DNA of 63,886 nt, filler included, from Reclinomonas americana ATCC 50394 (GCA_048213135.1; 20 parts of 20 records of this genome joined end to end with filler, not necessarily neighbours in it); one strand, 5' to 3'; counted from the first letter of the whole stretch, positions 5,005 to 61,214 are shown. Notes: generated by a model not told the origin, from the letters alone. A program made the numbers and translations.

Positions 5005-6603
5005 TCAAAATGATTTGCTGGTGAATGCGGCAACGCCGTTCTCGGAGTATTCCTGGCGGGAGACCCACATTTTCTGGAACGTCTCAAGCGCCGCCAACAC
5101 CGATCCACCAATCCAAGTCGTGTACTTGCACTCCGGAGGAACCTGCAATACCAGTCCTGCTGTGAGTGCAATGATCGTATTGGTCTGTGAAGTTGCAATA
5201 GACCTTGATTTTGATTTTCATGTCACGGGGAGCGAGCCGACGCATCTCCGCGAGAAGGCGATTCGGGAAGTCTGCAAAACAAAACTGTATGTCGACGAGA
5301 AGGGCACAAAGTTGTGCATTGCAAGCCACTCCACCTTTGAGAAGGGTGGTTCCACCGGCAAGGAAGATCTCCTGATATAGCGTTCGTCGGAGATCGAGAT
5401 CCGCCTTTTGAATACACGTGTTCAGGCACTCCTGCACACCCATGTACTCCGAGCCCATTAGCGATGGACTGAACAAGACTTCCGGTGCCTGATGTCGCTC
5501 CTCGCAAATCTATTGCACGAGCAGCACATTGATTGCATGAATAGCCATGATTCGCGCACCAACCGGCCACTCCACCCCCCCCCCCCCCCTGCCCCTTCTC
5601 TCCCCCACATCGTGAGTGGAAGAAGGAGGGGAAGAAGGGCGAGGGGGAGAAAGAGAACAAGGAACGAAAAGATGAAGGAAGAAGAGAAGAAAGAAGAAGA
5701 GATAACAACGGTGGGAGAAACGGTCGCCTACTCACGGTGATCTGCCGTCCATCCGGAAGCCGGTAGTCGACAGCTTCCGGTCGAATGTCGTCGGAGAACG
5801 AATGCGCAACACAACAAGCCTCTTCCTTGATGATCCTTACCACTTCACTGCAGCAAGAAGGACACACGAAAAGTGAGTGTATAGCACATGGAGCAGCAAG
5901 ACGGCTAAATTATTCGTCACTCACCGCTCGGCAGTGGTGTGGAAGATGTATCCGGCTTGGCGGAGAAGAAGCACAAGCTGGTCAGTGACATCGCGGCCGG
6001 CAATATCAATGCGTGTCACTGCATGTGGTATGGAGTAGCCCTGATAGACAGGGACAGCGTGCGTGACGCCGTCGCCGCAGTCGAGTACGACGCCTGTGGT
6101 CTTGCCACTTGCATACCTAGTTTGATCCACAGCAAGAGGTGAGTACACAATTTGGGTAAAACAATTGATGCGGTAGCGTTGTGACGCAACAAGCTGAGGA
6201 TAGCCTGGAGTGAAAAGAAGAGCGCAGGAACGTTCATCTTCTCGAACATAATCTCCGCAGCTTTCTCCCGGTGTTTGCGTGGATTGAATGGCGGTTCTGT
6301 CAACAACACTGGGTGCTACAGGAATTGTATCAGCGGCAGATGCGTGTAGGTACAGAGAGAGGGATTTTTGCTGTTAAGGAAACATGCAATAACTACGACG
6401 TCACCTCAGCCGCTGTCACACCAAGCTGATCGTAGGTGTACTCCCACAGGTGCTCCAGATCTTCCCACGACTCAACGATGCCGTGGTTGAGTGGATGACA
6501 GATTTTGAGCACACCACGCATCTCCTCCGCCTGCTTGCCGACGTAGCACTCGGCCGCGAGACCAGTTGTGATCACAGCCTTCTCATGTTTGGGATATCCA
6601 ACA
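5005..6603 (-). CDS. ARP1: Actin-related protein 1 (centractin, dynactin Arp1), 5' end missing
   Basis: Spliced product [112 protein letters not shown]. The [16 protein letters not shown] and KMWVS forms fit Arp1 rather than conventional actin. Confidence 0.85.
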
Positions 6604-14022: not shown

Positions 14023-14123
14023 NNNNNNNNNNNNNNNNNNNNNNNNNNNNNNNNNNNNNNNNNNNNTTAATTAATTAANNNNNNNNNNNNNNNNNNNNNN
14101 NNNNNNNNNNNNNNNNNNNNNNG

Positions 14124-14276
<153 letters not shown>

Positions 14277-14335
14277 TATTGTCGGCGGCTAGGAAGTGGT
14301 GCGCGGGTCACTCATTATTGTATGCGTGCGTGCAG

Positions 14336-15854
14336 GAGGTGACCGCCGATGGCGAGACCTACGAGGGCGCCTTTGTGGACGGTTTCCGTCACGGCAGCGG
14401 CAAGTCCATTCGACCAAACGGCGACAAGTACGAGGGCAACTGGAGCGAGGGCTACGAGTCTGGTGCCGTATTCTTTTGCTGCGCTGATTCCGCATGTTTT
14501 GCATGTCGTCTTACTCTTGGCGAATGCGATTGCAGGCGAGGGCTTGGTGCTGTACGCGAATGGCGACACGTACCAGGGTCATTTCAAGCAGGGCATGCGC
14601 AGCGGCTTTGGTGTGCAGACGTACGCCAGTGGTGCCGTGTATCGCGGCGAGTGGTCGGAGGACAAGCGCCACGGCAAGGTTTGCACGCTCTCTCCTCATA
14701 ACCGTTGTCATTTGTCGCGTGAGCTCAGCCGTCTGCGACGCATCCCGCAGGCCATCCTGAACTTCCCGAGTGGCGACAAGTACGAGGGCAGCTTTGATTC
14801 GGACCAGCGTGTCGGCATTGGTTTCCTGACACGCTCCAGCGGTCTTACGCTGCAACTCGAGTGGCTGAATCCCACCACTTGCCGCATCACGTATCCCAAC
14901 GGAGACACGTACGAGGTGTGTTGTTCGCCTCTTGCCTCCTGCTGCTTGCGTGAGACTAAACCTGCGGCCTCCTCTCCAGGGCGACTACAATCTGTGGGGT
15001 CAGTCGTCGGGTCGCCACGGACGTGGCACACACTGGTACCAAAATGGAGACATCTACACCGGTTTGTCGTGCTTCACGTTTGATGATACCTCCCCTCCAC
15101 CTTGCGCATCTCATTTGTACATGTGCGTGCAGGCGAGTGGGACAATGATGTGCGTGAGGGCCAGGGCTCGCTCACTGTCAGCGCCGACAACATTCCTCCG
15201 ATGCTCAGCGCCACTGAAATGGTGAGCGAGATGTGAGAGATGCGCTTTCGCGGTGCACTTCAAGTCACTCATTATCATCAACCCAGCTCCAACCGACTCA
15301 CGGCGTCGTGTACATTTCGCAAAACATCCTCGTCAAGTACGTTGGTCACTGGCACGAAGATATCTTCCACGGCGACGGCACAGCCACATTCACCGACGGT
15401 CACTATGACGGGGTGCGTCTGCCTCCATTTCATTTTTCCGTCTTTGTCCTCCTGCTCACGTACGAGTGTGGCTCTCGCTGCAGGAGTGGGTCAATGGTAT
15501 CGCCGAGGGTCACGGTATCCGCGTCTATTCAGACAACTCCAAGTACGAGGGCGAGTTCACCAATGGCTACCGCGAGGGCGCTGGCACTCTCAACTTTGCC
15601 GATGGCAGCTGGATCAAGGGTCAGTCACTACTGTGGATGGTGTTTGTGAGTGTGTGTCGCTTACTTTGTCACAACTCGCGCAGCTCCGTTTGTGGGCGAC
15701 ATGGCGAATGGCGACGGCGAGATGCACGATCCCAAGAAGGGCCACTATTTGGGCCACTTTGAGAATGGCGTTCGCAGTGGCCTCGGTCGCTTTGTCTTCT
15801 CCGCCAACGGCGACGTCTACGAGGGCGAGTGGGCCATGCATTTGGTTCGTCTCC
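14336..15854 (+). CDS. MORN-repeat protein, partial
   Basis: Repeated YxGxW/F..xxHGxG units (YEGAFVDGFRHGSG, YQGHFKQGMRSGFG, YRGEWSEDKRHGK, YEGEFTNGYREGAG, YLGHFENGVRSGLG) across about 8 exons. Confidence 0.92.
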
Positions 15855-15954
15855 NNNNNNNNNNNNNNNNNNNNNNNNNNNNNNNNNNNNNNNNNNNNTT
15901 AATTAATTAANNNNNNNNNNNNNNNNNNNNNNNNNNNNNNNNNNNNNNNNNNNN

Positions 15955-16754
15955 AGCTTGGGGCTTTTCTTCAGCTCGGCCGCGTCGCTCGGCAGGATCT
16001 CGGCCATGTCGAGCGCGCCGGAGATCAGGCCGGCCTTCACCGTGGCGGGATCCTTGACGACCAGGAACTTGACCTCCTTGAGCAGCGGTCGCTTGGAGCC
16101 GACATAGCCGTCGCGCTGCCCGCCCGATGGCGATTTGTAGCCCTCGAAGGCGGTCATGGTGAAATACTCGCCGCGCTTCCACTCGCCGAACTTGTAGGGG
16201 CCGGTGCCGATCGGCTTGTCCCAGGAGCCGTCGGCCTTGACCGAATCCTTGTGCAGGATCGCGGTCATCGCGCAGTCGGTGCGGGCGAGCGTGTCGAGAA
16301 AGAGCGCGTTCGGCTTATCGATCTGCATGACCACGGTGCGGGCATCGGGCGCCGTCACCGCCTCGACCTTGAGGCCCGAGCGCCCGTCGAATTCCGAGGT
16401 GCAGCGCCAGTCGGTCTTCGGATCCATGTAGCGATTCCAGCTCCACAGCACGTCGGCCGAGGAGAGCTCGGCGCCGTTGTGGAACTTGACGCCCTGGCGC
16501 AGCGTGAAGGTGTAGGTCTTGCCGTCTGCCGAGAGATCGACCTTCTCGGCGAGCAATGGCGTCGCGACGCCGCCCTCATTATAGCCGACGAGGCCCTCGA
16601 CCAGTTGCAGCGCAAAATCATCAGTGTTGTCGTCGCGGTTGACGCCGGGATTGTTGCTGCGGATATCGGCCGCGACCGCCACCGTGATGGACTGGGCTGC
16701 GGCCGGGCTGGCGAGCACCAGCAAAGTGAAGGCGGAAGCGAGCAGACGGTTCAT
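15955..16754 (-). CDS. Bacterial ABC transporter substrate-binding protein, family 5 (peptide/nickel-type), 3' truncated
   Basis: Signal peptide MNRLLASAFTLLVLASPAAAQ. Family-5 signature LAEKVDLSADGKTYTFTLRQGVKFHNGAELSSADVLWSW and PIGTGPYKF. RBS-like AAGGGG upstream. Intronless. Confidence 0.93.
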
Positions 16755-16801
16755 CGGCAATTCCCCTTGTTGTCTTGTTGTTGAGCTTGCGTTCGTTGGC
16801 C

Positions 16802-17686
16802 TCAGGCTGCCCTGGTCGCGCCGGCACGACGCTTGGCGAGCTCGTCGGCGAAGAAGTCCTCGACTCGCGAGACGGCCTTCAACCCGTCATGCGGCATGTT
16901 CGGCACGAGATCGAAGCGCACGCTGATGCCGTGCTCCTCGAAATTGCGGCGCAAGCTGTCGAGCCGTTCCGGGCGGTTGGTGCCGGCCCGGTTGGCGTCC
17001 GGCATCCAGCTGCGGTCGCCGGGCTTGTGGGTGATCTCCCAGGTTTCGAGATCGGCGGCGCCGACGATCATCTGGACCGCGACCTTGCGGATCGCCTCGA
17101 TGTCGGGCGCGGCGCCGAAGAGCTCGGCCATGTTGCGGGTGCCGACCCACCAGTCGCGCGTCGGGTCGAGCAGGGTCACCGAGCCTGGCGCGCCGATCGA
17201 GGCGGCCCAGAGTTTTTGGGGCTGCAGCATCAGGAAGCGATGGGTGAAGTGACCGCCACCGGAATAGCCGAACAGGGCGAAGCGATCGAAGCGCAGGCCA
17301 TAGTGCTGGGCGACCTCCTCGACCATGGCGAGCAGGATGTGGTCGTAACGGACCTCACCCTCCCGGATGTATTTGAAGCCGTTGCGGTTGCCGTCTCCCA
17401 TCACGCCGATCGGGAAGAGCGGCGCGAGGATGATGCAGTTGTTCCAGCGGCCGAAGGCCTCGAAGGCGTCGCGGTAGCCGGTGAAGCCGCGGCCGGTGCC
17501 GTGCATGGTGACGACGAGTTCGGGCGCCTGGCCGCCCTTCCCGAGGCTCTTGGGCACATAGAGGCAATAGCTGAAGCGCGGATCGGCCTTGCAGGCGGTG
17601 ACCGGCGTCGGGCCGAGATCGTAGAGCGCGCGGGCGATCGCGGCCGCGTCGTCCTGCTTGGCGGGCTTTGCGACGGGAGCGGTCAT
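16802..17686 (-). CDS. Bacterial alpha/beta-fold hydrolase (esterase-like)
   Basis: LVVTMHGTGR oxyanion-type motif, FGYSGGGHF nucleophile elbow, VGAAD and C-terminal H (NMPHDG). Co-oriented with and upstream of the SBP. Confidence 0.85.
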   Translation of the reverse strand: MTAPVAKPAKQDDAAAIARALYDLGPTPVTACKADPRFSYCLYVPKSLGKGGQAPELVVTMHGTGRGFTGYRDAFEAFGRWNNCIILAPLFPIGVMGDGNRNGFKYIREGEVRYDHILLAMVEEVAQHYGLRFDRFALFGYSGGGHFTHRFLMLQPQKLWAASIGAPGSVTLLDPTRDWWVGTRNMAELFGAAPDIEAIRKVAVQMIVGAADLETWEITHKPGDRSWMPDANRAGTNRPERLDSLRRNFEEHGISVRFDLVPNMPHDGLKAVSRVEDFFADELAKRRAGATRAA

Positions 17687-17708
17687 GCGGCGGTTCCCAA
17701 TTGGCTGT

Positions 17709-17726
17709 AAGATTGGCGCCAATTTT
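17709..17726. promoter_or_regulatory. Palindrome in divergent hydrolase/GntR spacer, candidate operator
   Basis: AAGATTGGCGCCAATTTT with a perfect 12-bp core ATTGGCGCCAAT (17712-17723). Confidence 0.4.
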
Positions 17727-17838
17727 GTTGCATGATATGGATGGCGCGGCAAGCCGGATTTGGACGGCGCGCGCAAACTGTGCGCGAGAGCGTCCCGATC
17801 AGTTCACAAGCATCGCTCCAATGCTCTAGAGACCCGTC

Positions 17839-18216
17839 ATGGCCACTCGTCCTAAAACCCGCCAGCGTGCCAAGGGCGAACTCGCCAACGAAATCGCCCA
17901 GGCGATCCATGTCCGTGCCTACCGGCCGGGTGAATGGCTGCGGCAGATCGATCTCGAAGAGGCCTTCCAGGCGACGCGTTTCGACGTGCGCACGGCGCTC
18001 GACGAACTCGCCGTGCGCAAGGCGATCGAGCATGTGCCCAATCGTGGCTATCGTGTCGCGGAACTCGATCGCGCCACCGACCGGGCGATCCGCGACACCC
18101 GCATCATCCTGGAGAACGCCGCGGCACGCCTGGTGATCGGCAAGATGGACGACGAGGCCATCGCGCGGCTCGATGCGCTGGCCCATGAGTTCAGCCAGGC
18201 CGTGCAGAGCGGTACG
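17839..18216 (+). CDS. GntR (FadR/FCD-type) transcriptional regulator, truncated by adaptor chimera
   Basis: wHTH pattern IAQAIHVRAYRPGEWLRQIDLEEAFQATRFDVRTALDEL..IEHVPNRGYRV, then the FCD start RIILENAAARL. Confidence 0.88.
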
Positions 18217-18316
18217 CTGCTGTACGCAGAGGCGGATGTACGGTACAGCAGTGTAGCCCTCGAACGGCGGTCGATCGGTGAAAGTACTCGCCGCGCTTCC
18301 ACTCGCCGAACTTGTA
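18217..18316 (+). other. Untrimmed mate-pair internal adaptor plus mate tag (assembly artefact)
   Basis: 18217-18251 CTGCTGTACGCAGAGGCGGATGTACGGTACAGCAG is close to the SOLiD/Ion mate-pair internal adaptor as I recall it (CTGCTGTACGGCCAAGGCGGATGTACGGTACAGCAG). 18252-18316 is an insertion-ridden copy of 16136-16196. Confidence 0.88.
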
Positions 18317-18416: not shown

Positions 18417-20354
18417 GTGAGAAAGAAAGAGAGAGAGAGAGAGAGGGAGGGAGGGAGGAAGGGATAGAAGACGGGAAGCAGGAAGGGAGAGAGGAGAGGA
18501 GTTGCAGACAGAAATCGAAACAGACGAATCGGCGTGCAAGACACGGACATGGGAAACGAAGCAACGCGGACAGGGAGACAGAGAGCGAAAGACGGAGAGA
18601 GAAGGAAGGAAGGGAGATGATAAATGGGTGAAATAGAAGCAGAGGGAGAGAGAGAAGGTGGGGGATGGTGAAGGGAGGGAGAAGAGAAGCAGGGAGGGAG
18701 GAAGGAGAGAGGAGAGTAGTTGCGGACAGAAATCGAAAACACTCACATGGGTAACGAAAGCGATGTGGACATGGAGACATTGCGAGGGAGGTACGAAGGG
18801 AGGAAGGGAAGATGAGAGAGACGGTAGAGAGAGGAAGGGAAGAAAGAGACAGGCAGACGAGAGGTGTTGCTCAGGAAGACGATCTGCGCGTGCAAGACAA
18901 ATGATGCAACGTGGACAAGCAGACGGAGAGAGTGTGCAGGGAACGGAGACGGGGGGAGAGAGGGAGAGAAGAATGGGGAGATAAGAAAGCATAAAAACCA
19001 CACGTGTCGTTTTCAGTAATCAGAGTTGAAAATGCAACAGAGACAGAGAGAAAATGAGGGACGACGGGGAGGAAGGAAGAGGAGGGGAGAGAGAGGGGGG
19101 CAGAGAAGAAGGAAGGAAGGGTGAAAGCGAGAGGAGAGGAGTTGCTCAGGAATATCGAGCGGCGAACTCCGGGTGCAAGACAGTCACCAGGGAAACAGCA
19201 ATACGGACACGGAGACAGAGAAAGTGGGGGAGGAAGGAAGGGGGAGAGAGAGGGAGGCAGGGACAGAAGAAACATGACACGCAACGCGAGCGAGTTACAA
19301 AGGATGAGCTGCTGCGGGATATCGAAAGAGACGATATCCGACCTTGAAAGCGTGGATCGGAGACAGATAGAGAGGGCAAACAGGGCGAAGGAGAAAGAAC
19401 GGAGGGAGGGAGAGAAGCGGCAAGGAAAAGCGAGCGACGCGAGAAAGAGAGAAGACAAGGGACATAAGAAATAGACGAAACCAAACAGACACACGTGTCG
19501 TGTTCAGTAATCGGAGATGACAAACAGAGGAGAAAGGAAGCCAAGAGAGAGAATGAGGGAGATAGGGGAAAGAGAGAAGGGGGGAGGAAGGAAAGGAGAG
19601 AGGAAGAGACAGGGAGGTGAGTGGCGTTCCAGAGAAATACCTATAAAGTCGATGTTCTGGTCGACAGCAACGTGGACACGGAGACAGAGAGAGGGAGGAA
19701 GGGAGAAAGAGAGGGGGGAAGAGAGAGAGAAACGACAGGAGAGAAGCAAGCATCGCGAGAAAGAGAGAAGACAGGGGAGTGAGAATAACAAGAAAAAACA
19801 AAACAGACACACGTGTCGTGTTCAATAATCGGAGATGACAAAATGAGCGAGAAAGGGGATAGTGAGGGAGGGAGACAGAAGGAGAGAGAAGGGGGGAGGG
19901 AAAGGGGGGAGGGCAGGGGGGAATGGAGGGCGGAAAGAGTGAGGAGAGGAGTTGCAGACAGAAATCGAGAACTGACGATCTATGCAGGCAAGACACTGAC
20001 CTGGGAAACGACAGCAAGAGGAGGTGGAAGGAAGGGAGAGAGGGAAGAGAGATAGAGGGAGGGAGGGGGGAGGGGGATACAAACGACAGGAGAGAAGCAA
20101 GCATCGCGAGAAAGAGAGAAGAAAGGGGAGTGAGAAGAAGAAGAAAAAAAGACTGACACACGTGTCGTGTTCAGTTATCGGAGATTACAAAATGAGCGAG
20201 AAAGGCGATAGAGAGGGAGGGAGATAAAAGGGGAGAGGGAGAGAGAGTGAGGAAGGGAAACGGGGGAAGAGAGGAAGGGAGCAAGAGAGAGGGAGACGAG
20301 AGGAGTTGCAGACAGAAATCGAAAACTGACGATCTCCACCCTCACGACTCTCAC
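18417..20354 (-). repeat. Degenerate intronic tandem repeat (~300-350-bp units) in CT-rich intron
   Basis: Recurring blocks on +: ACACGTGTCGTGTTCA(G/A)TAATCGGAGAT near 19000, 19490, 19808 and 20157; GAGTTGCAGACAGAAATCGA near 18498, 18716, 19947 and 20303. Confidence 0.75.
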
Positions 20355-20654
20355 CTGGGAAACGACAGCAACGTCGACACCGAGAACACCACAATGTAGA
20401 CGAGCGCGACGAGCAGCGGCCTATCATCGGCCACCGTGCGCATCGATCGCGCCGCCAGTGCCATGCTCTCCAGCGAAAACATGCGATATCCACCCAGCGC
20501 AAGAAACACGCCCAACGCAGCAAGGTAACCGACAATCCACAGAAGTCGGCGTCTCCATGAAGTCGAAGACACCACAGACGCACCAGTGCCAGCTGTTAAT
20601 GATCCAGACGATGATGACAATCCAGTGACTTGCGCGCTGTTCCATCCCGTCAAC

Positions 20655-20693
<39 letters not shown>

Positions 20694-21040
20694 GATAGCA
20701 AGGGTAGAGAGGAGGCGGAGAGTGCCGCTGTCTGTGGCGTGTCGGCCTTGACTGCTCTTCTCATCATCGTCATCATCATCATCGTCCCTGCGCCACCGTT
20801 CTGATCGCTGCCACCACTGTTGTCGGCGTCGACAGTGATGGAGGCAGGCGTGGTGGTGATGGTGGATGTTGAGCGGAGGGGAGCGGCGGTGGTGTGTGAG
20901 GAGGTGGCGATGGCGACATGCAGATCGGGCTTGTTCGTGTTGTGAGCAGAGGCGCTGTGTGTGTGCGTGTGGGCGTGGGTGTTGGGGGAGCTGACAAAGA
21001 CGGCGGCGGCCATGGCGGCGGCTGCGGAGGAGGCCGCCAT
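20355..21040 (-). CDS. TVP38/TMEM64 (VTT, SNARE-associated) membrane protein, first exon
   Basis: Low-complexity N-terminus, then RRLLWIVGYLAALGVFLALGGYRMFSLESMALAARSMRTVADDRPLLVALVYIVVFSVSTLLSFP, the TM1-amphipathic helix-TM2-LSxP pattern that precedes the VTT domain. Ends at a GTGAG donor (20354). Confidence 0.7.
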
Positions 21041-21650
21041 GCGCACACACAAACGCCGGTGTTGTGTGAGGTGGAATGGACGGCGGAATCGGATCGACCC
21101 GTTACGGGCATGTTCGAATTGGGTGGGGTTCGTGACCGGAAGATTTGGAAGGGGGTGGAGAAGGGGGGCGTAGTAGGTGGAGGTAGAGAGCGACGTGTGG
21201 AGAGGGAGAGAGATGGTCCGAACAAAGATTCGGTTGTAGCATGCAGGAAAGCGCAGAATATTCGAATTCGTCAAATATCGAAAGCGTTTCGTGCAGCGGT
21301 TTGGAGGGCTGCACGTGGGGCCTCGTATGGTGAGACCAAGAGGATTCTGGTGCAGGGTAAAGTCGACTGAAGTGGAAACGATTTTCCGAATTCGAATCCG
21401 AACGCTTGAATTCGCAGAAATGCAGCAGGAAAAGGTGTTCAAAAGACGGAGGAAAAGGAAGGAGTCCTCCACCGCTGTGTTTGTCTCTCGGAAAAGCTGT
21501 CGTCTGGGACCGGCCTTCGTTGGCAAATGCATGCACATGCGCATGCGCAGTTGCGGCTGGCTAGCGCTTCGTGTTTGCCGGCAAGAAACCTGGCTTGCAG
21601 GGGACACGAGAAGGCAGCGAGTACTTGTGTTCCCACGGGGTCCGGATCTG

Positions 21651-21695
<45 letters not shown>

Positions 21696-22151
21696 GACGG
21701 AGACGACGCGCGACGACGGTCGGGTCGGACCGGTACCGGTACCGTACGTACGACGCGACGCGCGCGGTCGGTCGGTCGGTACGGTAGTTCGTCGCGTACG
21801 TACGTACCGACTNNNNNNNNNNNNNNNNNNNNNNNNNNNNNNNNNNNNNNNNNNNNTTAATTAATTAANNNNNNNNNNNNNNNNNNNNNNNNNNNNNNNN
21901 NNNNNNNNNNNNAGAGAGAGAGAGAGAGAGAGAGAGAGGCGGAGCAGCTGCAGCGGTGCGACGTCGACGTACTACGCGCAGCGCGCGTTGGCGGTCGAAG
22001 TTGTCGCGCGTATACCGGCAACTCTGTCTGTATAAGCGTTAATACTGCCGTTAGGTGAGCTCTGAGGGCTAGCTGGCGCGACCGCTGCTGCGAAGCGCGA
22101 ATCCTGCAACGAATTCGAATTCGAAGTTATTGGGGGTTACTGCGAGGTAGA

Positions 22152-25100
22152 ATGAAATTCTACCTATGTAAGTAATTATAACCCTCTCTCTATGCCAGCG
22201 CGGTGTTAGTGACTTTGTCTTTCTGTTATCCGCCATTTCGCGCCCTCCTCCTCGGCCACGCATCGCCGCACGACTCTAGCACCACCACCACACTCCTCTT
22301 TGCCTGCCATACCAGAGCCACTCAAGAGATCGCACAAAGAAGGGAGTGGTGAGGAAGCATCGAGTGTGTGGAGGTTTAAATTTGTTGATGAACGGAATGC
22401 ACTCGCGGCGTTTTCTTTGCACGAACATGCTCAGCGCCAAAAGCTGCGCAGGAATGGTGGCCCAGCGGAGTGCCAGGTGAGGAGCCAACTTGCGATGGAA
22501 ATCCTGGCCGAACTGCGCATGCCACTGCATTTGGCGCGCACTGCGATTGCGTCACATGATTGCGTCACATGATTGCGTCACACATGATTGCGTCACACTC
22601 CGTTTTACATCTGCCATGAGAGAGCGAGCAACACCATGAACATGTAAAAGCCCGTGTAACAGAAACGCCAACCGCCATTTCATTTCACTTCGCAGTAACC
22701 CCCAGCTAGCTATCCGCCCGGCGGTGCTCGCTAGTATATATTGGCGGACGCTCATCGCGTTTCACAGCTTGTTCGCCGCCACTCACGTGCACTGTGTGTG
22801 TGATTGTGGTGTGCGAGCGCGCACATATGTTGCAGCGAATGCGCGCCTGGACTGGAAGGATGGTGTCTTGTGGCATCGCGGTGAGTTGCTGCGCAGCGCT
22901 ATCAAGTGTGCTTGGTGTTCTCGCTCAACCATGTCGTCCACGTGTGTGCTAGCATGTGCAGAAGTCGATCAGCCTTGCTCACCTCACCAAGGCGGCGTTT
23001 GCAAAACTGCGAGGCCCAGCTGCTGTGCCTGAGCGGAAGTCGCTCGAAGAAACACTTTCCAGAGTGACTGCCAGCAGAAGCGAGCGGCGCCAAGTAGATC
23101 CGGAGCTTGCTTCACTCATGAAGGAGTCCATTGATCATCGCATCAACATCATTCACGAGGGCTTGGACACTGCGCTGACTGACATGAAGAACTATCGCCA
23201 CAAGCTCGCGTCTCTGGGCTATGCCGTTTACGAGCACGAAGGCGACTCACACGATGTGGCAACACCGGAGGGGCGCATCTCAGCTGCACGGGAGATGTTG
23301 TGCAAGATGGCAGATGAGTGCTCATCGAGGAGCGTCAAGTACCGTCTGCGCAATCTGGAAGTGGTGGACGTGCAGGAGACCTATGTCATTGTCGTTGGGT
23401 GCTGCTCTTGCTGCTGTATGTCACTTGACCTTTCTTTTCATCGTCTTTGTTGCGTTGATGGTGTGCATCTAGGTGGACCTTGAGCACCGTGAGGTCAACG
23501 TGTGCATCGCCGGTACCCGGGCACGCAAGGTGACAGATTGGTGGACCGATTCCAAGATTGGTCTCGGACTGTCGTTCTTCGGCGCTGTCCCGTGGCAGTT
23601 TGAGGCCGCCAAGGAGGCTCTGCGGCACGCCCTCGATGAGGTGGCTCCAGCATACGAAGCACCATTCAAGCCGTATCGCGTCAGTGTGCACGGACACAAT
23701 CTCGGCTCGGCCATCGTGCGTGTCATTGTCGCTGTCGTGTTATGCTCCTTACTCACTTCAAGGGGACAAGTGCACAGTGTGCCTGGTTGAAGCACAGCGA
23801 GCTGGCCAAGAACGCCAAACTGCCTGTGAACGCGTACTTGTTTGCCACCATTCCAGTTCCGCCTGGATGGGTGGACGGTGACACCGGCAAGGTCTGTACT
23901 CCACTTAGTGCGTGTGTGATTACCTCCCAGACTGAGCCGCGTCGCCTCCATATGCATCGCAGCACCAGGGCGGAATCGCCCCATATGCGTCAACGGCAGA
24001 AGGCAAGACGATATTCCACCGCGGAGGCGCTGTCCATTCGTACTCGAATGCCGGTGACTGGTTGGTCGGAGTGGCACAGTGGGTCGGTTCGCTTCGACGA
24101 GGCATCCTGCTGCCGGACACAATTGAGCACGACTCGCCGCTGAATGGGCATCCCATCGGGGATCATTTCAACACCACCCGCACCGGTGAGTACGAATGAT
24201 CTGGACGCAGTTGCAACCGGTGCAATGATTCTCACGTTTTTCGCGCGTATTGGGCTCTCCTCCTCAGCGATTGGGAAGAAGGATGCAGAATTTGTCGGTG
24301 ACACTGTCTCAGTGCTACGTAATGCGATGCTGCCAAGTGGTGAGCGTTTATGTCACTGGAGACTAAACTGCGGTTACAAGCCTCGAGCTCACAGCAGTTG
24401 TGCACGCAGATGTCTCATCGGTGTCTGTGGGCAAGGTGAAGCGCGCTCTTTTGAACGTGTTCAAGAAAATCAACAAGCACCATGTTGATGTGCAACAAAG
24501 TGCGCGTTTGCAAGCCACGCTCAATGACTGCCTGCAGAATTTGTGGAATGGTTCGCTATTCTCCCGACATGTACTGTCAGTGCCATACACATTCCACTTC
24601 TCTTGCAGAGATGCGAGGCCGTGTGATTGGAGTCGAGGCACAGAGATCGCTGGATGTATTAGAGTTCCTTGGCTCGCTTGTCGATGTGGTAACGGAAGGT
24701 GCGCTCGCACTCGACTTCGAGCCTCTGTAAGTCAGTAGAGATCTAGATCTCTAGAGGCTGACTTTTGGATCTTGTTCAGATGGCGATTCACCTGCAATTG
24801 CGGCGGCGACTCAGGAGATCGACAAGCACTTGGATGCTATCCACAGTTATTTTTCATTCTCTTTCGTCTGCTAGTGTTCGCTACCATGCTCATTGCGCAA
24901 CAGAAGTTCCTCGATCTGTGCTGCTTGTGTGTCTCGGAGTTCAACAGTTTTGCGGTGATAGAGTGCCTGTTGCGTGTGGCTCGTTGGTGCGGACCGGTAT
25001 GGTCATGCGATACATTATGATAATATCACATGATACAGAGGAGCACGGCAGCCGCGCAGGAAGCGCTCCGACTGTCTCGATCGTTTGCTGACGCTTTTGG

Positions 25101-27306
25101 CGATATCGATGAGGCAGTTGGTATGTTGTGAGACAAACTTCACGTGCGCGCAGCCTGATTTCTTGAGACTGAAGGCGTGTTTTGAACTGCAGGCAACAGC
25201 CAGAACAAGTTGCTGCAGTCAATGGAGAAGATTGCTGCGGCGCTCAACTCTCTTGGCAAGTACGCTGAAGCGGAGGAAATTCAGCGACGGGTGGTGGCCG
25301 ATCAAGAGCGGACTCTTGGAGTCGACCATCCGGACACCATCACCAGTCGCGCCAACTTAGTGTTAACACTCCAGTCACTTGGCAAGTATGTCGAGGCTGA
25401 GGAGATTGAGCGACGCGTGGTTGCCGACCGTGAGCGGATTCTTGGAGTCGATCATCCACACACCATCAACAGTCGTGCCAACTTGGCATCGACACTCGAC
25501 TCACTTGGCAAGGATGCTGAGGCCGAGGAGATTCAGCGACGGGTGGTGGCCGACAATGAGCGAATTCTTGGCGTCGACCATCCGCACACCATCATCAGTC
25601 GCCACATCTTGGCATCGACACTCGACTCACTTGGCAAGGATGCCGAGGCCGAGGAAATGAAGCGGCGTGTGGTGGCCGACAATGAGCGGATTCTTGGCGT
25701 CGACCATCCGCACACCATCACCAGTCGCCACAACTTGGCATCGACACTGCTGTCACTTGGCAAGGATGCCGAGGCCGAGGAGATCCAGCGGCGTGTGGTG
25801 GCCGACAATGAGCGAATTCTTGGCGTCGACCATCCGCACACCATCACCAGTCGCCACAACTTGGCATCGACACTGCTGTCACTTGGCAAGGATGCCGAGG
25901 CCGAGGAGATCCAGCGACGGTTGGTGGCCGATCAAGAGCGGATTCTTGGCGTCGACCATCCGCACACCATCACCAGTCGCCACAACTTAGTGTTAACACT
26001 CTACGCACTCGACAAGTATGCCGACGCCGAGGAGATTCAGCGGCGTGTGGCGGCTGACTATGAGCGGATTCTTGGCGTCGACCATCCGGGCACCATCAAC
26101 AGTCGTGCCAACTTGGCGATGACACTCCAGTCACTTGGCAAGTATGTCGAGGCCGAGGAGATTCAGCGACGGGTGGTGGCCGACAGTGAGCGAATTCTTG
26201 GCGTCGACCATCCGCACACCATCACCAGTCGCCACAACTTGGCATCGACACTCTACGCACTCGGCAAGGATGCCGAGGCCGAGGAGATCCAGCGACGTGT
26301 GGTGGCCGACCGTGAGCGGATTCTTGGAGGCGACCATCCAAAAACTATCACCAGTCAGCACAACTTGGCGATGACACTCCAGTCACTTGGCAAGTATGTC
26401 GAGGCCGAGGAGATTCAGCGACGGGTGGTTGCCGACCGAGAGCGGATTCTTGGAGCCGACCATCCAAGCACCATCGCCAGTCGTCGCAACTTGGCGTCGA
26501 CACTCTGGTCGCTTGGCAAGTATGTCGAGGCCGAGGAGATTCAGCGACGGGTGGTGGCCGACCGTGAGCGGATTCTTGGAGTCGACCATCCACACACCAT
26601 CACCAGTCGTGCCAACTTGGCGATGACACTCCAGTCACTTGGCAAGTATGTCGAGGCCGAGGGTATTCTGCGACGCGTGATGGCTGACTGTGAGCGGATT
26701 CTTGGAGTCGACCATCCGGGCACCATCAACAGTCGTGCCAACTTGGCGATGACACTCCAGTCACTTGGCAAGTATGTCGAGGCCGAGGAGATTCAGCGAC
26801 GCGTGATGGCTGACTGTGAGCGGATTCGTGGGGTCAACCATCCAGACACCATCACCAGTCGTCACAACTTGGCGATGACACTCCAGTCACTTGGCAAGTA
26901 TGTCGAGGCCGAGGAGATTCAGCGACGCGTGGTTGCCGACTATGAGCGGATTCTTAGAGTCGACCATCCACACACCATCACCAGTCGTGCCAACTTGGCG
27001 TCGACACTCCAGTCACTTGGCAAGTATGTCGAGGCCGAGGAGATTCAGCGACGGGTGGTTGCCGACCGAGAGCGGATTCTTGGAGTCGACCATCCGGACA
27101 CCATCAACAGTCGTGCTAACTTGGCGTCAACACTCCAGTCACTTGGCAAGTATGTCGAGGCCGAGGAGATTCAGCGGCGTGTGGTGGCCGACCGTGAGCG
27201 GATTCTTGGAGTCGACCATGCAGGCACTATCAGCGTTCGTCACAACCTGGCTTCGATACTCCAGTCGCTTGGCAAGTATGCTGCCGACAATGAGCAGGGC
27301 GGCTAG
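22152..27306 (+). CDS. Lipase_3-like (Ser->Asn) domain plus helical linker plus 16 KLC-type 42-aa TPR repeats
   Basis: Exons give VNVCIAGTR..TDWWTD..RVSVHGHNLGSAI..VNAYLFATIPVP..SYSNAGDWL..NGHPIGDHF, which is class-3 lipase motif order. Terminal exon ~25194-27306 is a TPR array. The start at 22152 (MKFYL|) is inferred from a phase-compatible intron. Linker exons are less certain. Confidence 0.75.
22545..22598 (+). repeat. 4 x 13-bp tandem repeat GATTGCGTCACAT
   Basis: Units start at 22545, 22558, 22571 (with an extra CA) and 22586. Confidence 0.92.
25252..27267 (+). repeat. Coding tandem array, 16 x 126 bp (42-aa TPR)
   Basis: Consensus LGKYVEAEEIQRRVVADxERILGVDHPxTIxSRxNLAxTLxS. 14 + 16x42 + 12 = 698 aa, matching ORF 25210-27306. 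Confidence 0.97.
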
Positions 27307-27627: not shown

Positions 27628-30600
27628 TCAATACAAACTCGCCACCTTCACCCCACCCGGCCCCTCCCTCTCCAACCTCGACACCGCCTCCAACGACAAC
27701 CTCCACGCCGCCGGATCCACCACAAACGACCCAGCTATCCGACCACCCGGCCCATCCTGCGCCCCGGCACTCACCGTCGGGAAATACAGCCCCGGCGGCA
27801 ACCGCTGCTGCACCGGCACCATCCCCAGCACGCGCCCATTCAGCGACGCCAACACGTCGCCCGTCGCCGTAAACACACCGAAACCGACCCGATCGCCCGT
27901 GCCGTACAGCGGGCCCATTTGCTCGCCCGGCCCGAACGACGAGTACGCAATGCCGTCGTCGCCGTGGTAGGCCACTGAGAGGGGGTGCCAGCCCACCTTG
28001 AGAGGCAAAGTGAGCTGAAGGGAAGGAGAGATGACACGCACACTCTCCTTCTGCTCACCTGCAGCTGATGCAAATCAAACTGCGAAAACGCCACCCCTGC
28101 ACATCTCGGCACGTCGCCTTCCACTTCATCAAAGTGAATCTCAAAGTAACACAAGCTCTGCACACACTGTTGTCAACACATCGACGAGAATCACCACCAG
28201 AAGCAAATCACGCACATTGCTGTCGGCATCCACCTCAATCGGCAGCTTGAGCTGCGCACAATCTCAGCACTCAAATCATCCCTCACCACCTCCCTTTAAC
28301 CCACCCACCTGCATAACATGCGGCCCGCACAGGCACACAGTCTTGTCGTACTCAAACGACATGCCAACGGGGTGCTCGGGTGGATGCGCCCCCCGATTCA
28401 CAAACGACGGAGCAAAGCGCGCAAAACTCGGCATCGCCTGCGCGTCCCTTAGCTGGCGCAGACAGAAGCGGAACGGCGCCTCCATCCACCGTCTCTCATC
28501 GGCACCAGCCGCCGGCAGAACACTCATCACGCACGTCATGTTGCCGAGCATGTGCGCCCCTTCGTTGCCGCTGCTAAAGGTCGGAAAGTACACGCCCGGC
28601 TCCAGCGGCGGTCGCTGCAGGAAGCCCAGGAAGACGCCATTCAGCGTCGCCCACACCTCGCCCTCCTGCAAGTCGACGCCTGTGCACGAGTGAGAGCAGT
28701 GACGAACAGCAGGGGAGGGAGGTAAGGAGGACAGACCAATGCCGACAGTGTCGCCGGCACCGTACAGCGGTCCAAAGGCATTGCCGACACTCAGATCTGT
28801 GATCCAGCGATTCAGCACACACACACACACACACTCGCAGTATCTTGCCCTCCTTCTCTGTCAATCAATCGCGTTTCCAGAGCAGCATTCTTTCTCCAAT
28901 CTCAAGCAAACACTCGCAGTTTTCACTCTTACTTTTCTCTCTCTCGTACTCTCTCTCTCCCTCTCTCTCGCATACACACACTTTCTTCCTCGTCAGTCGA
29001 CCATGCACTCAGAGCAGCATGCCATTCTCTCCCCTGTGTCGCACACAAACTCGGAGCCTCTTGTCTTCCCTCTGTCGCAGACTCAGAGCAGCATCCTTCT
29101 CTCTCAAATACACACACACAGACAGACACTTGCAGTCACTCTCGCTCGCCAGTCAGTCACAGACTCGGAATAGCATCCTTCTCTCGCTCCCATATACACT
29201 CGCAGCATCTCCCTCTCTCATCATCAATCAGTCACAGACTCTGCGCAGCACCATTTTCTCTCCTAAATGACACACTCGCAGACACGATCGCACTGTCTCC
29301 TTGCTCTCTGACACATGCAGGGCAGCATAATTCTTTTCTCTCTCACGCACTCCCAGCCATTTCCTCCCTCGCTGTCAGATAGTTAAAGATTCAGAGTAAC
29401 AACCTACTCTCTCTTCTCTCACTCACACGCACACACTTACAAGCAGACTCTCTGCCTCCTCTGCCAGTCAGTCACAGACTCAGTATTCTTCTCTCGTTCT
29501 CACTCTCTGTCGATCAGAAACATATTCCGGGCAGCACTCTTCTCCCCTCTCTCACTCTCACACTCCCCTGGCCATTATCCCTCTGCCAATTGGTCACAGA
29601 TTCAGAGGGCATTCCTCTCTCTCGCTCCAGTACTCGATCTCTCTCTTTCTCTGTCAATCAGCCGCAGATTCCGAGCTGCATCCATACCTCTCTTGCCTCT
29701 CTCGCCTCTCTCTCTCTCTCTCTCCCATTCTTTTCCCTCTCCCTCTCTCTCCTCTCTTCCCTCTCTCTCTCTTCCTCTCTCTGTCTCCCTCTCTCTTCCC
29801 CACGCACACACGCCTCCATACTCGTGCCCATTGTCCCCGTGATACGCTCGACTCTCGTGCGTCCACCCCACATGCATATCGTTGAGCGGAAACGCCGCCG
29901 GCGCCACTCCCAGACACCGCGCGTCTGCGCCCGTGCACTCCTCCACCTCCATCTCAAAGTAGAAAAGACCCTGGCAGAGAGGAGGGTTGGCGACAAAGGC
30001 TCGTGGCAGAGCGAAGGACGGAAAACGCAACTCGTTCTGCTGGGCCGATCTTGATGGGCGCGTTGAGCTGCGGAAAGAGGTGAGAATGGGGATGTACAAG
30101 GCAACGCGAAGAGCGTGGAGAAAGGAAGCGAGGAGAGGACAGGGGAAACAGAGAAAGGGACAACGAGAGACGAATGACTCTGGGCGCACAAGTGAGCAAG
30201 TGTGCGAGTGAACACGTGGGAAAGTAGAAGAGCACAGCGAGGCAGTGTGCGAGCGGAGAGTGAGGGCAATGGAAGACAAGGCAGAGTGAGAAAGCGGCGC
30301 AGAAGTCTGCGAGAGGGGGAGTGTGTGACAGCGCGGACAGTGAGTCGGAAGGAGAGTAGAGTGAGGGAGAGTGAGAGCGAGGAGTGCTTCGAAGGACTTG
30401 AGGAGTGCATGCAGAAGTCTCTGAATGAACGCACTTTGAGAGCGAGAAGGAGAGCGCGATCACGCGAAGAGTGTGTGCGGAAGAGAAGAGCAGTGTGTGA
30501 GCGGAGAGCGAGGTTACTGGAGCTGAAGAGAAGAGTGAGCGAGTGCAAAAGTCTGTGAATCATCGACGAAGGAGAGGGAGAGTGAGTGGGAAGGAAGAAC

Positions 30601-32604: not shown

Positions 32605-33533
32605 TGCACACACACACATTCACACTCACTCACGCTCACTCATTCCCACACCAGGGAGATTGCAGGAGTCTGTTTTGTTGCTTCTCTCACTCACTCTCTA
32701 TCCCCGTCACTCTCCCCCCTCTCTCTCACACACACATTCACACACACACTCACTCATTCCCCTCATGTGCACTCAGGGGAGAGTTTGCAGGATTCTGCAT
32801 TCTTCCTCACTCATTCTCTCTTTGTCTCCTTCTCCCTTTACTCTCTCCCCTTCAATCTCCGCCCTTCACCTTTCACTATTTCCCTCTCTCCTTCCCTTCC
32901 CTCCATCTCTCCCCTTCACTCCCCTCTCCCCCTCACCCTTCGCCCTTCACCCTTCACTCTCTCCTACTTTCCTTCCCTCACGCTCTCTCCCCTTCACTCT
33001 CCCCTTCACTCTCCCTCTCTGCTTCCCTCATTCCTTTGTGATTTGCATGTGAGCAGAAGAACTATGCGCCTGGGAGTGCCGAACGCGAGGCCTTGGCCAA
33101 GGCCATCAAGCAGGCACGCTCGAAAGTGCATGAGATCCCCTGCATCATCAATGGACGCGAGGTCTGTGTCTTGTCGATGTCGAAGTGTGTGTTCGGAATC
33201 CGTGCATCTCTTTGCAGGCTGACTGTGTTGTCTGTGTCGTGGCAGATTTACACGGGCAAGGTGCAGCAGCAGCTGGTGCCGTATGATCACAAGTCGGTGC
33301 TGGCGAACGTGCATTGCGCGACGCCGGAGTTGATCAAGGAGGTGGGTGGCGGGTGATTCTTCTTCCCCTCATCCCTTCCCCCTCAACCTCCCTCTTCCCT
33401 TCCTTCCTCCCTTCCCCTCTTTGCAGGCCGTGGCCGGTGCCGTCGAGGCCCAGAAGAAGTGGAGCCGCACGACCTTCGAGCAGCGCGCTGCCGTGTTTTT
33501 GAAGGCCGCCGACCTGCTCGCCGGCAAGCACCG
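31996..33533 (+). CDS. ALDH4A1: Delta-1-pyrroline-5-carboxylate dehydrogenase (ALDH4), first 4 exons
   Basis: MKVLWSVRRWMSTTTGLSKLPRITNEPM|KNYAPGSAEREAL..EIPCIINGRE|IYTG..PYDHKSVLA..|AVAGAVEAQKKWSRTTFEQRAAVFLKAADLLAGKHR. Basic, acid-free mitochondrial-type presequence. Confidence 0.92.
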
Positions 33534-35001
33534 GTGCGTGTGTTTGTGTGTCTGTCTGTCTGTCTGTCTGCATGATTATCTCCCTCCTCTTTGTGTGTGT
33601 GCGGGGAAGAGGGGTGGGGAATGGANNNNNNNNNNNNNNNNNNNNNNNNNNNNNNNNNNNNNNNNNNNNTTAATTAATTAANNNNNNNNNNNNNNNNNNN
33701 NNNNNNNNNNNNNNNNNNNNNNNNNAATGATATCCACTACGCATCTGAGAGATGCGAGCTTGCACAAAAGGGTCGGCAAGGCCGGCCATGTGCAACCATT
33801 GGCGCGAGAGCGCCAACAGAACACACGCCGAGTGCAGTGTCTTTCACAAGGAAAGGGCACAACCGTCTGCCTGGTGACCTCCTTGCCTACTCCGAGAAAG
33901 AATCGGGGTTGGAGGAAGCCACCAGGTGGTTCACTCGCACGAAGGCGGCAAACCACGGGAACAATCATCCAATGGATTGCAGGACGGAGTGACAGATGGA
34001 GAGATAATCGACAGCTGTCTAACGACGTCGGCAATCCTTCTGCAATGAGCCAATCGCAATTTCGAGCTACAGGAATGCAAAGTCTGTGCCGAGGCCTGGC
34101 CTTAGAATGACCGTAGCTCACCGACAACATGCGTTAAACACCAGTCATCTTCTCCTTCAGGATCCGGTTTTTCATCATTTCGAATTTGTCGATATTGATC
34201 CGGTTTTGCATTTTTCGCTGCGATATCGATATTGCAGCCTCTGCGCGCATTTGGACCACGTATCTGTCTCTGTTTCCGGTGCTCTCTCGCAGGATGCTGC
34301 CGGGGATCATCATGAAGGAATGGAAGAATTTCTCTTGCAGGTACAGCAACGTTGTTCGACCGCGAAATCGCAGCGAATTCGAAGCTCCAGAACGCTCTCC
34401 TGACTACGTTTGGAGAGAGTTCCATACGCGCAAACCAGGTGGCTTGCTCTCGTAAGAGAGGAAGCCTACAGAAGCAAGGAACTGAAGGAGAGGACACTAC
34501 AGGTATGGATTGTCCTCGACTTCGTGTTCCGCAGCTCAACACTTCCATCACACTCGCAAGGAATTCTTCAGCCGGATTCAAGACTTATGTGTACATGTGG
34601 ATGTTTTATATGCTGGTTACGTCATCAGACACTTGTTGCAACTGCTTGTCTGTTTTTGAATTTTTTTGTTTTTTGGTCTCTCGCTGCGATTTTGCAGCCT
34701 CAGCGTGCATTCGAACCCCGCGTCTTTCTCTGTTTGTATCGCTCTCTCGCACGATACTTGCAAAGATCACCATGGTTTCTCATGCAGAAACGCCAGCATT
34801 AGCAATCGATATCTCGACTTTTTCTCGTTTTTTTCCGTGATGTTTGAGTTTCTGGTGCTCACTCAAGATGGTGATCATCATGCAGCTGTGTGCTGTTTGG
34901 AATACGTCGAAAGTTGTTGTTGTCGTGCCTTCCACAAGGTCAATTTCGCTCGCGTCTCGCATTGTCCCCGATTATCACACACACACAACGCGCGACACAC
35001 C

Positions 35002-39764: not shown

Positions 39765-41024
39765 CTACGGCGGCTGTCCTCCTCCTGCGCCCTTGCGCCC
39801 TCCACCAGCAGGAGAAGCTGCTGCGGTGGAAGTGGTGGTGGTGGTGGTCGTGGAAGAAGAACCGGGGTACGTAAAGGCTGCGCCATTGGTGGATCCGGGT
39901 GGCACAATGCGCTTGCCCGGCGACTGTGGCCGCGCGAGCTCAATCTCCGGCGTCGAGCCGAGCAGGTAGGGATTGTAGTTGACGCAGGTGGTGGCGGGCG
40001 TCCACACGTCGTCCACTGGGGCACGCGTGCGCTCCAGTGCCTGGATGTAGGCCTCGGTGGTGTAGTTGGAGCGCGTAATGTCCTGCCCGAGGGTGACCCA
40101 GCCGGGTCGCAGGTTGTGGTCCTCGCCGAACAGCTCGATGCGGCGGCGGCCGAGAGAGAAGTGTTCGATGATGGAGTAGAGTTCGTCGGGTTTGCGAAGG
40201 CCTGCGTCAAGGGAAGGGATAAAAGGGGGAAGGGAAGAGGGGAAGGGTGAGCACAGGGGGTTTCACCCTTCACCTCTCGCTTCCCTTTTTCACGCAACTT
40301 CCCAGCGGCGGCTCCTCCGCCACAATCACATCCGTGTCGATATTCGCGTGCACCAAGTGTCCATCGTGGCTGCGCCGAACGGTGCCGTGCATGCCCACCA
40401 GACAGTGCTCCTTGGAGTGCTTGAACAGCGTGCCGACCTCCACCGACTCGAGCTTGTTGCGCACCTTGTTGGACTTGATCCAGCAGATTTCCTCCACGCG
40501 GCGGAAGCCCCAGCGTGTGAGGAGAAGGCGGCCTGTCGCCGAGAAGGAGAGGGAAGGAGAGGGAGGGAGAGTGAGGGACAGAGAGAAACAGAGAGGAAAG
40601 AGAGATGCAAGAGAGAGCAAAGAGGAAAGAACGAAAGAACGAGAGCAATGCAGAGAGACGAGAGAGAGAGAGAGAGAGAGAGCAGAAGAACGGAAGAGAG
40701 AGAGGAAAGAGCGCACGACAGAGAGAAGAACGAGAGCAAGACCGAGAAGAAAGAGAGCAAAACGAGAGAAGAAGAGACCAAGACAAAGAGAGGAACGAGA
40801 GCGAGGCGGAGAGAACGAGCTAGGCCGNNNNNNNNNNNNNNNNNNNNNNNNNNNNNNNNNNNNNNNNNNNNTTAATTAATTAANNNNNNNNNNNNNNNNN
40901 NNNNNNNNNNNNNNNNNNNNNNNNNNNGAGAGAGAGAGAGAGAAGAAAGAGGGCGCGGCAGGGAGAAGAATGAGAGCAACAGAGGGAGGAGAATGAGAGC
41001 AAGACAGAGAGAAGAAAGAGAGCA

Positions 41025-58863: not shown

Positions 58864-58958
58864 GACGAGTGTGCCCTCTCACTCGTTGCCCAATGAGACA
58901 CTTGAATGAGATGTCACCGGAAACGACGGATGTCCCATTGAGTGTCCTGTCGAAGTGA

Positions 58959-59574: not shown

Positions 59575-59758
59575 NNNNNNNNNNNNNNNNNNNNNNNNNN
59601 NNNNNNNNNNNNNNNNNNTTAATTAATTAANNNNNNNNNNNNNNNNNNNNNNNNNNNNNNNNNNNNNNNNNNNNGTGTCGTTCATGTCGCCAGCGCCGTC
59701 CACTTCGTCCTTTCGGAGCGGAGCGCCGGCGGGCGCTCCGTGATGGTCAGGTGCTGCG

Positions 59759-61042: not shown

Positions 61043-61214
61043 CTCTTTCTCCTCCCTGACTATCGTTCTTGTCGTCGTTGACCCCGGTTTTCAGCTGTTC
61101 AGGCGCNNNNNNNNNNNNNNNNNNNNNNNNNNNNNNNNNNNNNNNNNNNNTTAATTAATTAANNNNNNNNNNNNNNNNNNNNNNNNNNNNNNNNNNNNNN
61201 NNNNNNTGGCGGGG

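Follow-up and report, generated by a model that had tools for sequence, protein, structure and literature searches.

INTRODUCTION

In plants, animals, fungi, and bacteria alike, intracellular immune receptors are commonly built from an effector domain, a nucleotide-binding oligomerisation domain (NOD), and a repeat array. Lipase-type domains occur at the N terminus of fungal NOD-like receptors (NLRs), a group enriched in highly conserved 42-residue tetratricopeptide repeats (TPRs) whose variable sites lie on the concave face, as set out in the sections of the source drawn on here (PMC4986451). Proteins of the NB-ARC-TPR type were put forward as receptors in Ectocarpus (PMC3341825) and Acanthamoeba (PMC4053784), to judge from the cited portions of these papers, and the lipase-like domains of the plant EDS1 family are described, in the part of the text cited, as a non-catalytic scaffold (PMC6377607). 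Here, we describe a locus of Reclinomonas americana ATCC 50394 (GCA_048213135.1), lying in a 63,886-nt stretch of DNA (the window), in which a predicted gene on the plus strand (22827–27306) would join a lipase-like domain to a TPR array with no detectable nucleoside triphosphatase (NTPase) domain between them.

An earlier note on this DNA had interpreted the locus as a pseudo-lipase fused to a TPR array and proposed that it encodes a NOD-less receptor, with fungal NLRs and the EDS1 family as its background. The EDS1 half of this background agrees with the cited portion of the source (PMC6377607). The fungal half is correct in pairing lipase-type domains with conserved TPRs, but the domains named in the cited sections are sesB-like (SERAC1-like) or patatin and not class 3 (PMC4986451).

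RESULTS

On the evidence of its sequence, the locus is predicted to encode a lipase-like domain with an asparagine codon in place of the nucleophile, a linker without a detectable NTPase, and a TPR_10 array in which the repeat scaffold appears to be under selection and variation is restricted to stripes. The exons were joined by hand and by script, keeping GT–AG borders and the reading frame, into a predicted gene model. It comprises 12 exons from the ATG at 22827 to a TAG at 27304–27306 and encodes 1247 amino acids (aa). All 11 introns are GT–AG and 38–82 nt long, and neither a stop nor a frameshift interrupts the 1247 codons. Exon 1 (22827–22880, aa 1–18) begins at the first in-frame ATG, there being none between the upstream in-frame stop and 22827, and ends at the donor GTGAGT. 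Exon 2 (22962–23393, aa 19–162) encodes an N-terminal region without an assigned family (GC at the three codon positions, 0.60/0.42/0.66) and closes with a strand, ETYVIV, running up to the lipase-like core. Exon 3 (23473–23715, aa 163–243) encodes this core, in which IAGT and DWWTD are followed by GHNLG, the nucleophile elbow; exon 4 (23778–23891, aa 244–281) adds the post-elbow helix and YLFATIPVPP, and exon 5 (23963–24185, aa 282–356) the remainder of the domain, with HQGGIAP, FHRGG, NAGD, NGHP, and GDHF. Six linker exons follow (24268–24339, 24410–24550, 24609–24698, 24780–24865, 24904–24996, and 25039–25120; aa 356–544), and exon 12 (25193–27306, aa 544–1247 plus the stop codon) encodes the TPR array. 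The linker exons sum to 564 nt, preserve the frame, and have a coding-like GC profile when read in the frames connecting exon 5 with the TPR exon: codon-position GC is 0.59/0.39/0.57 for the six pooled, 0.62/0.45/0.68 for the lipase exons, and 0.67/0.40/0.67 for the TPR exon, and the introns are flat.

The earlier note had placed the start of the gene at 22152, which the data do not support, as the candidate upstream exon has flat codon-position GC (0.51 at the third position). Its upstream exons (22152–22476) were not adopted because of this flat profile and because a tandem 13-mer and a TATA-like string precede the ATG at 22827. The 13-mer, GATTGCGTCACAT, was detected by Tandem Repeats Finder (TRF) in 3.9 copies at 22545–22597 and contains a bZIP-type TGACGCAAT core. 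The TATA-like TATATATT lies at 22745–22752, about 75 nt 5′ of the ATG, and together with the 13-mer array it may be the promoter of the gene.

Direct reading of the sequence confirmed that the motifs of class 3 lipases occur in their proper order: IAGT (23506–23517), DWWTD (23536–23550), GHNLG (23692–23706), YLFATIPVPP (23835–23864), NAGD (24047–24058), and NGHP/GDHF (24143–24169). Two reference sets of bacterial Lipase_3 open reading frames (ORFs) served for comparison. Set 1 came from one phylum (matches in 59 of 301 genomes, plus one further locus) and yielded ORFs for 27 of 31 loci, the other four being dropped for want of a motif-bearing ORF over the locus centre; set 2 came from a second phylum, in which 18 of 301 genomes matched and all 18 ORFs were extracted. 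The N-terminal 543 aa, spliced, reached 13.9 bits with a hidden Markov model (HMM) built from the 27 ORFs of set 1 (best of 2000 shuffles, 4.7), which aligned aa 147–245 to FRGT...DW..D...GHSLG. In profile–profile alignment with hhalign, residues 101–380 scored 45.3 against set 1 (probability 82%, 229 columns). All 150 shuffles stayed at or below 25.6, reversal of the query brought the score down to 15.4, and with an unrelated profile it was 10.1. Scores against the other profiles were 31.5 for set 2, 43.0 for the combined set, and 29.3 for Mbeg1-like. The alignments to set 1 and to the combined set placed YLFATIPVPP of exon 4 on the yTFGsPRvG strand of the family, and the distance from the RGT motif to the nucleophile position, 61 residues, falls within the family range of 55–75.

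Lipase_3 is the sole Pfam match on exon 3; exons 4 and 5 have none at E ≤ 1. Structural leads from the ESM Atlas, to be read as leads only, were all Lipase_3, Mbeg1, or DUF676 for exon 3 (scores ≤ 0.87) and, for exon 5, exclusively DUF726 and DUF900, which are alpha/beta-hydrolase families (≤ 0.86). Other searches with the N-terminal exons returned little. Exon 2 gave a sub-threshold Pfam match to DUF7856 (E 0.0011; 19 bits, cut-off 30.2), and PADLOC and NCBIfam profiles found nothing meaningful on exons 2–5 (the JetC coiled coil on exon 2 had an E value of 0.0015). A word-index search of longer proteins with exon 3 produced 52 candidates, none at E ≤ 0.01, and its four matches among PDB sequences (E 0.05–1.1) included no lipase. 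Relatives were absent from metagenome contigs searched with exons 2 and 3 and from viral contigs searched with exon 3. We conclude from the sequence comparisons that the likeness to lipases, although weak, is beyond chance, and that the domain would be a remote relative at best.

The codons GGA CAC AAT CTC GGC encode GHNLG (residues 236–240), and the AAT at 23698–23700, as the earlier note had read it, specifies Asn238. The aligned column is serine in all 45 bacterial Lipase_3 ORFs (27/27 in set 1 and 18/18 in set 2). With asparagine in place of the nucleophilic serine, the domain cannot work as a serine hydrolase. The note had also held that the Asp and His of the triad remain. For the histidine, hhalign points the same way with low per-column confidence, placing His349 (GDHF) in the His column of the family. 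The aspartate is ambiguous: with set 1 and the combined set, hhalign puts the family Asp column on the glycine in HQGGIAP and FHRGG on the family Y-x-H-x-G, whereas both MAFFT --add and hhalign run on set 2 assign that column to Asp313 of NAGD. The distance from the asparagine to NAGD, 75 residues, lies outside the range of set 1 (48–62).

Pfam identified exon 12 as a TPR_10 array (E 3.2e-210; 675.6 bits against a cut-off of 27.5; 17 stretches), and TRF reported a period of 126 nt in 16.1 copies with 87% matches and no indels. An N-cap and a divergent first unit are followed by 15 full units and one truncated unit of the 42-aa TPR_10 type; the 15 full units share 79–94% DNA identity (mean 86%) and 81% protein identity. 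AlphaFold2 modelled aa 545–882, the first eight units, with a predicted local distance difference test (pLDDT) score of 88.4 as 16 helices, all in pairs, in which helix A spans unit positions 2–17 and helix B positions 21–39. When the model was searched against known structures with Foldseek, the best matches were the TPRs of kinesin light chains (KLC1/2) with cargo peptides and the Podospora structures 4Y6C and 4Y6W (E 1e-10 to 1e-12 for KLC1/2 and 4Y6C); the top fold match was KLC1 6swu (E 8e-12), and 4y6c gave a template modelling (TM) score of 0.86 on the target. By sequence, the top PDB match was 4y6c_A (E 3.7e-24), and kinesin light chain and LGN/Pins were also among the best. The closest array sequences were TPR proteins of Streptomyces and fungi (32–54% identity). 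Many of the 120 relatives listed bear NB-ARC, patatin, PNP_UDP, CHAT, TIR, or kinase domains; no Lipase_3-bearing protein was noticed among them.

Amino-acid variation between the units is concentrated at positions 3, 6, 9, 13, 16, 21/22, 28, and 35. In the AlphaFold2 model, the first five of these lie in helix A and the remainder in helix B, which would give one variable stripe per helix. Positions 6, 9, 13, and 16 we take to be the canonical TPR positions 2, 5, 9, and 12 of the concave binding face. Overall, the ratio of non-synonymous to synonymous differences per site (pN/pS) between repeats is 0.49; for the 34 scaffold codons it is 0.17, a value that points to selection acting on the scaffold. 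At the eight variable codons, pN is 0.39 and pS 0.17, a ratio that is descriptive only because these codons were picked after inspection. Taken together, the sequence data suggest that the array looks like the selected, ligand-binding repeats of NLRs.

The six linker exons encode about 190 aa, and in line with the earlier note, no Walker A, NACHT, or NB-ARC was found in them by Pfam, motif scan, or comparison with pre-TPR regions. Eight of the 11 ORF pieces of the locus, all linker pieces included, have no Pfam family at E ≤ 1, and no piece has an NTPase family at that threshold; the EP domain of the EDS1 family (PF18117) is likewise absent from the linker pieces. Neither NB-ARC nor NACHT occurs in any window ORF of at least 110 aa, and the upstream neighbouring contig has no NTPase. 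The sole Walker-A-like string ([GA]x4GK[ST]) in the six frames of the contig, ASTAEGKT (23987–24010), falls inside lipase-like exon 5 and was judged incidental. In five fungal effector-TPR proteins (P0028, P0011, P0046, P0033, and P0103), NB-ARC and/or DUF7779 occupies the approximately 400–600 aa before the TPRs. When set against the sequences that precede the TPRs in 112 of the 120 TPR relatives listed, the linker showed no similarity, with a score of 14.5 (shuffle mean 11.2, maximum 15.8). An initial likeness to NB-ARC-side regions (49% probability) was due to TPR overlap and was gone after trimming, and the linker contains no cryptic TPR unit. We judge the linker to lack both the length and the likeness that a NOD would have. 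No TIR, death-fold, or other immune-type domain was found by Pfam on the ORFs of the locus or by PADLOC and NCBIfam on exons 2–5.

The window consists of 20 contigs joined by 19 identical 100-nt contig linkers (N44 + TTAATTAATTAA + N44, giving 38 N44 runs), for example at 21813–21912 and 40828–40927; the locus lies on the 11.7-kb contig at 21913–33625. MT-A70 homologues are collinear across 40828–40927, so that at least one contig linker represents a true gap between adjacent and co-oriented contigs. The best relatives of the MT-A70 ORF in the protein collection are 39–56% identical to it, and those with names include Klebsormidium and Cyclospora. On the host contig, a minus-strand gene (27631–28860) lies tail-to-tail with the TPR gene; its part at 27631–28074 has a weak, sub-cut-off SPRY match (E 0.001, 19.6 bits), and its second ORF (28279–28860) resembles the SPRY ORF by eye and has no Pfam family at E ≤ 0.01. 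The contig directly upstream (18417–21812) is of purine-rich low complexity (plus-strand G+A 71%); (GA)n runs lie close to the contig linker on either side, and a minus-strand ORF (20351–21856) ends in a plausible two-helix membrane segment.

Elsewhere in the window, eukaryotic gene pieces encode actin (5087–6373, minus), MORN repeats (14075–15902, plus), the start of an aldehyde dehydrogenase (33334–33624, plus), WD40 repeats (46715–47059, minus), a 377-aa leucine-rich repeat ORF (52507–53640, plus), and the N-domain of a cytosolic carboxypeptidase (58200–58913, minus). Two bacterial contigs stand among the eukaryotic ones (15955–18316 and 59675–62579). One carries a LacI-family ORF (61236–62267) with 99% identity to Bosea vestrisii, flanked by a solute-binding protein with a TAT signal (59759–61090, minus); a second solute-binding protein, an SBP_bac_5 ORF (15903–16886, minus), lies on the other, which has 65% GC. 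These contigs are probably contamination or derive from an associated bacterium. Scans of the whole window for Rfam families and tRNAs found none, and no paralogue of the locus was found within it.

DISCUSSION

We tentatively favour, at somewhat less than an even chance, the explanation that the locus is one intact 12-exon gene for an NTPase-independent sensor or adaptor, in which a dead lipase-like domain, a non-NOD linker of about 190 aa, and a solenoid of about 17 TPRs follow one another. The solenoid, with its units of KLC/NLR type, would use the variable stripes to bind a ligand, either a peptide or a protein, and the dead lipase fold could serve as a non-catalytic binding or dimerisation module, by analogy with the EDS1 family. 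A ligand-binding solenoid coupled to such a module would make the protein a sensor or adaptor that works without an NTPase, possibly in non-self recognition. Of the earlier interpretation, the architecture finds support at the level of sequence (a dead lipase-like domain, a short helical linker without a detectable NOD, and a conserved TPR_10 array); the receptor function, single transcript, expression, and binding of lipids or small molecules are inferred. A bolder version has a protist immune receptor of new build whose hypervariable TPR solenoid directly senses a microbial ligand and signals through the dead class-3-lipase fold with no NTPase switch, the fold dimerising or binding a lipid or small-molecule second messenger in the manner of EDS1. 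We regard this as very doubtful; if true, a pseudo-lipase would have been put to EDS1-like use independently, in a lineage other than plants.

Several observations weigh against the reading that we favour. The Pfam Lipase_3 match (PF01764) reaches only 13.5 bits (E 0.068) against a cut-off of 22 bits and is confined to exon 3, and genuine Lipase_3 proteins of the other phylum score 187–221 in the same hhalign test. Lying above all shuffles and far below true members, the domain would be only distantly related to class 3 lipases, strongly diverged from them, and not a regular member; the term pseudo-lipase in the earlier note is supported by above-chance profile likeness and by the motifs, but the likeness is weaker than the term implies, at a sub-cut-off Pfam score and about a quarter of the hhalign score of true members. 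The predicted fold of the exon-3 fragment is unreliable (pLDDT 56), although its strand–helix–strand order fits an alpha/beta hydrolase. A phmmer search of 1.84 billion representatives with exon 3 returned only two matches, both repeat proteins aligned over short stretches and for that reason judged spurious, and so revealed no conservation of the N-terminal half in another organism. Ordinary scaffold proteins, kinesin light chain for one, have TPR_10 arrays as well. Within the gene model, exon 1, placed by its ATG, is the least certain exon, and the junction after 24865 requires a 38-nt intron, the alternatives being a 29-nt intron or the skipping of that exon. Lastly, the 11.7-kb contig belongs to a fragmented assembly with bacterial contigs among its members, and short-read assemblies are error-prone over highly conserved repeats, according to the part of the source cited (PMC11761791).

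The best-surviving alternative, which we consider unlikely, is that the protein is an ordinary cytoplasmic scaffold or adaptor of the KLC kind, with a degenerate hydrolase fold and no part in non-self sensing, and that the uniform repeats reflect a recent tandem expansion. In its favour, kinesin light chains and LGN/Pins are among the best PDB matches both by fold and by sequence; the same is true of the missing NOD, TIR, death-fold, or other immune-type domain and of an overall between-repeat pN/pS that does not exceed 1. Yet by sequence the first-ranked PDB entry is the protein of Podospora with 42-residue repeats, and the closest array relatives listed are mostly fungal and actinobacterial TPR proteins with NB-ARC, patatin, PNP_UDP, CHAT, or TIR domains. 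The concentration of variation in stripes on a constrained scaffold also speaks for more than scaffolding, as it is the pattern reported for NLR repeats in the cited sections of PMC4986451.

Alternatively, the locus could be the decaying remnant of an effector-NOD-TPR gene that lost its NOD exons, suffered a mutation of the nucleophile, and is no longer expressed or selected. The dead nucleophile, an acid residue that is possibly lost, and the extreme divergence of the lipase-like domain would all fit such a history; moreover, five of seven related TPR proteins scanned contain a NOD-type module (NB-ARC and/or DUF7779), and NB-ARC-TPR families have high birth-and-death rates and pseudogenes, at least in the portion of the source cited (PMC3341825). 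A decaying gene is nonetheless difficult to reconcile with an open frame over the entire coding sequence, the retention of GT–AG at 11 of 11 introns, constraint on the repeat scaffold, and coding-type GC in a linker that bears no trace of NB-ARC or DUF7779, and we consider decay improbable.

It is a little more improbable still that two neighbouring genes have been mis-joined, one of them lipase-like, with its end shortly beyond exon 5, and the other encoding TPRs alone, with its start in or just before the big exon. Retention of intron 5 would introduce a stop after four codons (GEYE*), and the small linker exons (72–141 nt) match no family and need the one 38-nt intron; however, all six have coding-like GC in exactly the frames that join the two parts, their 564 nt keep the frame, and the parts lie only about 1 kb apart. 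Least probable of all is that the asparagine stems from an error in base calling or assembly, or from a mutation private to the strain, and that the real protein is an active GHSLG lipase effector on a TPR sensor: AAT is one transition from AGT and the assembly is fragmented, but the codon lies in non-repetitive sequence without a homopolymer, and the divergence of the rest of the domain from the family consensus, with the acid residue missing in half of the alignments, fits a long-standing loss of catalysis and not a single error.

If an intact gene for a sensor or adaptor with a dead lipase-like domain is indeed what the locus represents, it would join the EDS1 family of plants as the second independent case in which a lipase fold has been turned to a non-catalytic role. 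It would also raise the question of whether repeat-based sensing can be coupled to output without nucleotide-driven oligomerisation. A locus that is merely decaying or mis-joined would be of little consequence.

We compared the predicted sensor or adaptor with the systems nearest to it; full-text literature searches found no description of a protein with a class-3-lipase-like domain and TPR_10 repeats but no NOD. Like the NLR-like NB-ARC-TPR proteins of fungi and actinobacteria, it has an N-terminal hydrolase-type domain, a C-terminal array of 42-residue TPR_10 units that are highly identical to one another, and position-restricted variation. Those proteins, however, carry NB-ARC and/or DUF7779 in the approximately 400–600 aa before the TPRs, whereas the locus has about 190 aa without such a signal, and their lipase domains are sesB-like/PGAP1-DUF676 or patatin, whereas that of the locus is class-3-like and lacks the serine. 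The sesB-like families (PF05057/PF07819) gave no Pfam match at E ≤ 1 at the locus, and DUF676 itself matched in only 2 of 301 genomes, a number insufficient for a profile. A phmmer comparison of the N-terminal 543 aa with the 120 listed TPR relatives, including P0103 (PGAP1 + NB-ARC + TPR), gave a best E value of 0.16. Between them, the Pfam and phmmer searches revealed no resemblance to either the sesB-like or the patatin type.

With class 3 lipases, the domain shares the xRGT-x6-DW-x-D motif, the spacing of about 61 residues to G-H-x-L-G, the yxFxxP strand, and, as far as the alignments go, a late D-H, and it differs in the otherwise invariant serine, here asparagine, and in a profile likeness that lies below the Pfam cut-off. 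The 42-residue repeats of Podospora anserina (4Y6C/4Y6W) and the TPRs of KLC have the same unit of helix A, helix B, and DHP loop, but they are isolated TPR domains or motor adaptors, none fused to a lipase-like domain. EDS1, PAD4, and SAG101 offer an analogy, in that a lipase-like alpha/beta-hydrolase domain precedes an all-helical C-terminal part, and SAG101 is not known to have the catalytic triad. Their helical part is an EP domain, in contrast to the TPR_10 array of the locus, which has no EP match; the lineages are unrelated, and the likeness is one of architecture only. The NOD-less CHAT-TPR proteins differ in that the CHAT domain is C-terminal (reversing the order) and is an active-type protease effector, and they come from metagenome records; P0018 (12 TPR_10 units and CHAT, without NB-ARC) has an enzyme-type domain attached directly to a TPR_10 array with no NTPase, an arrangement comparable to the one predicted for the locus described here.

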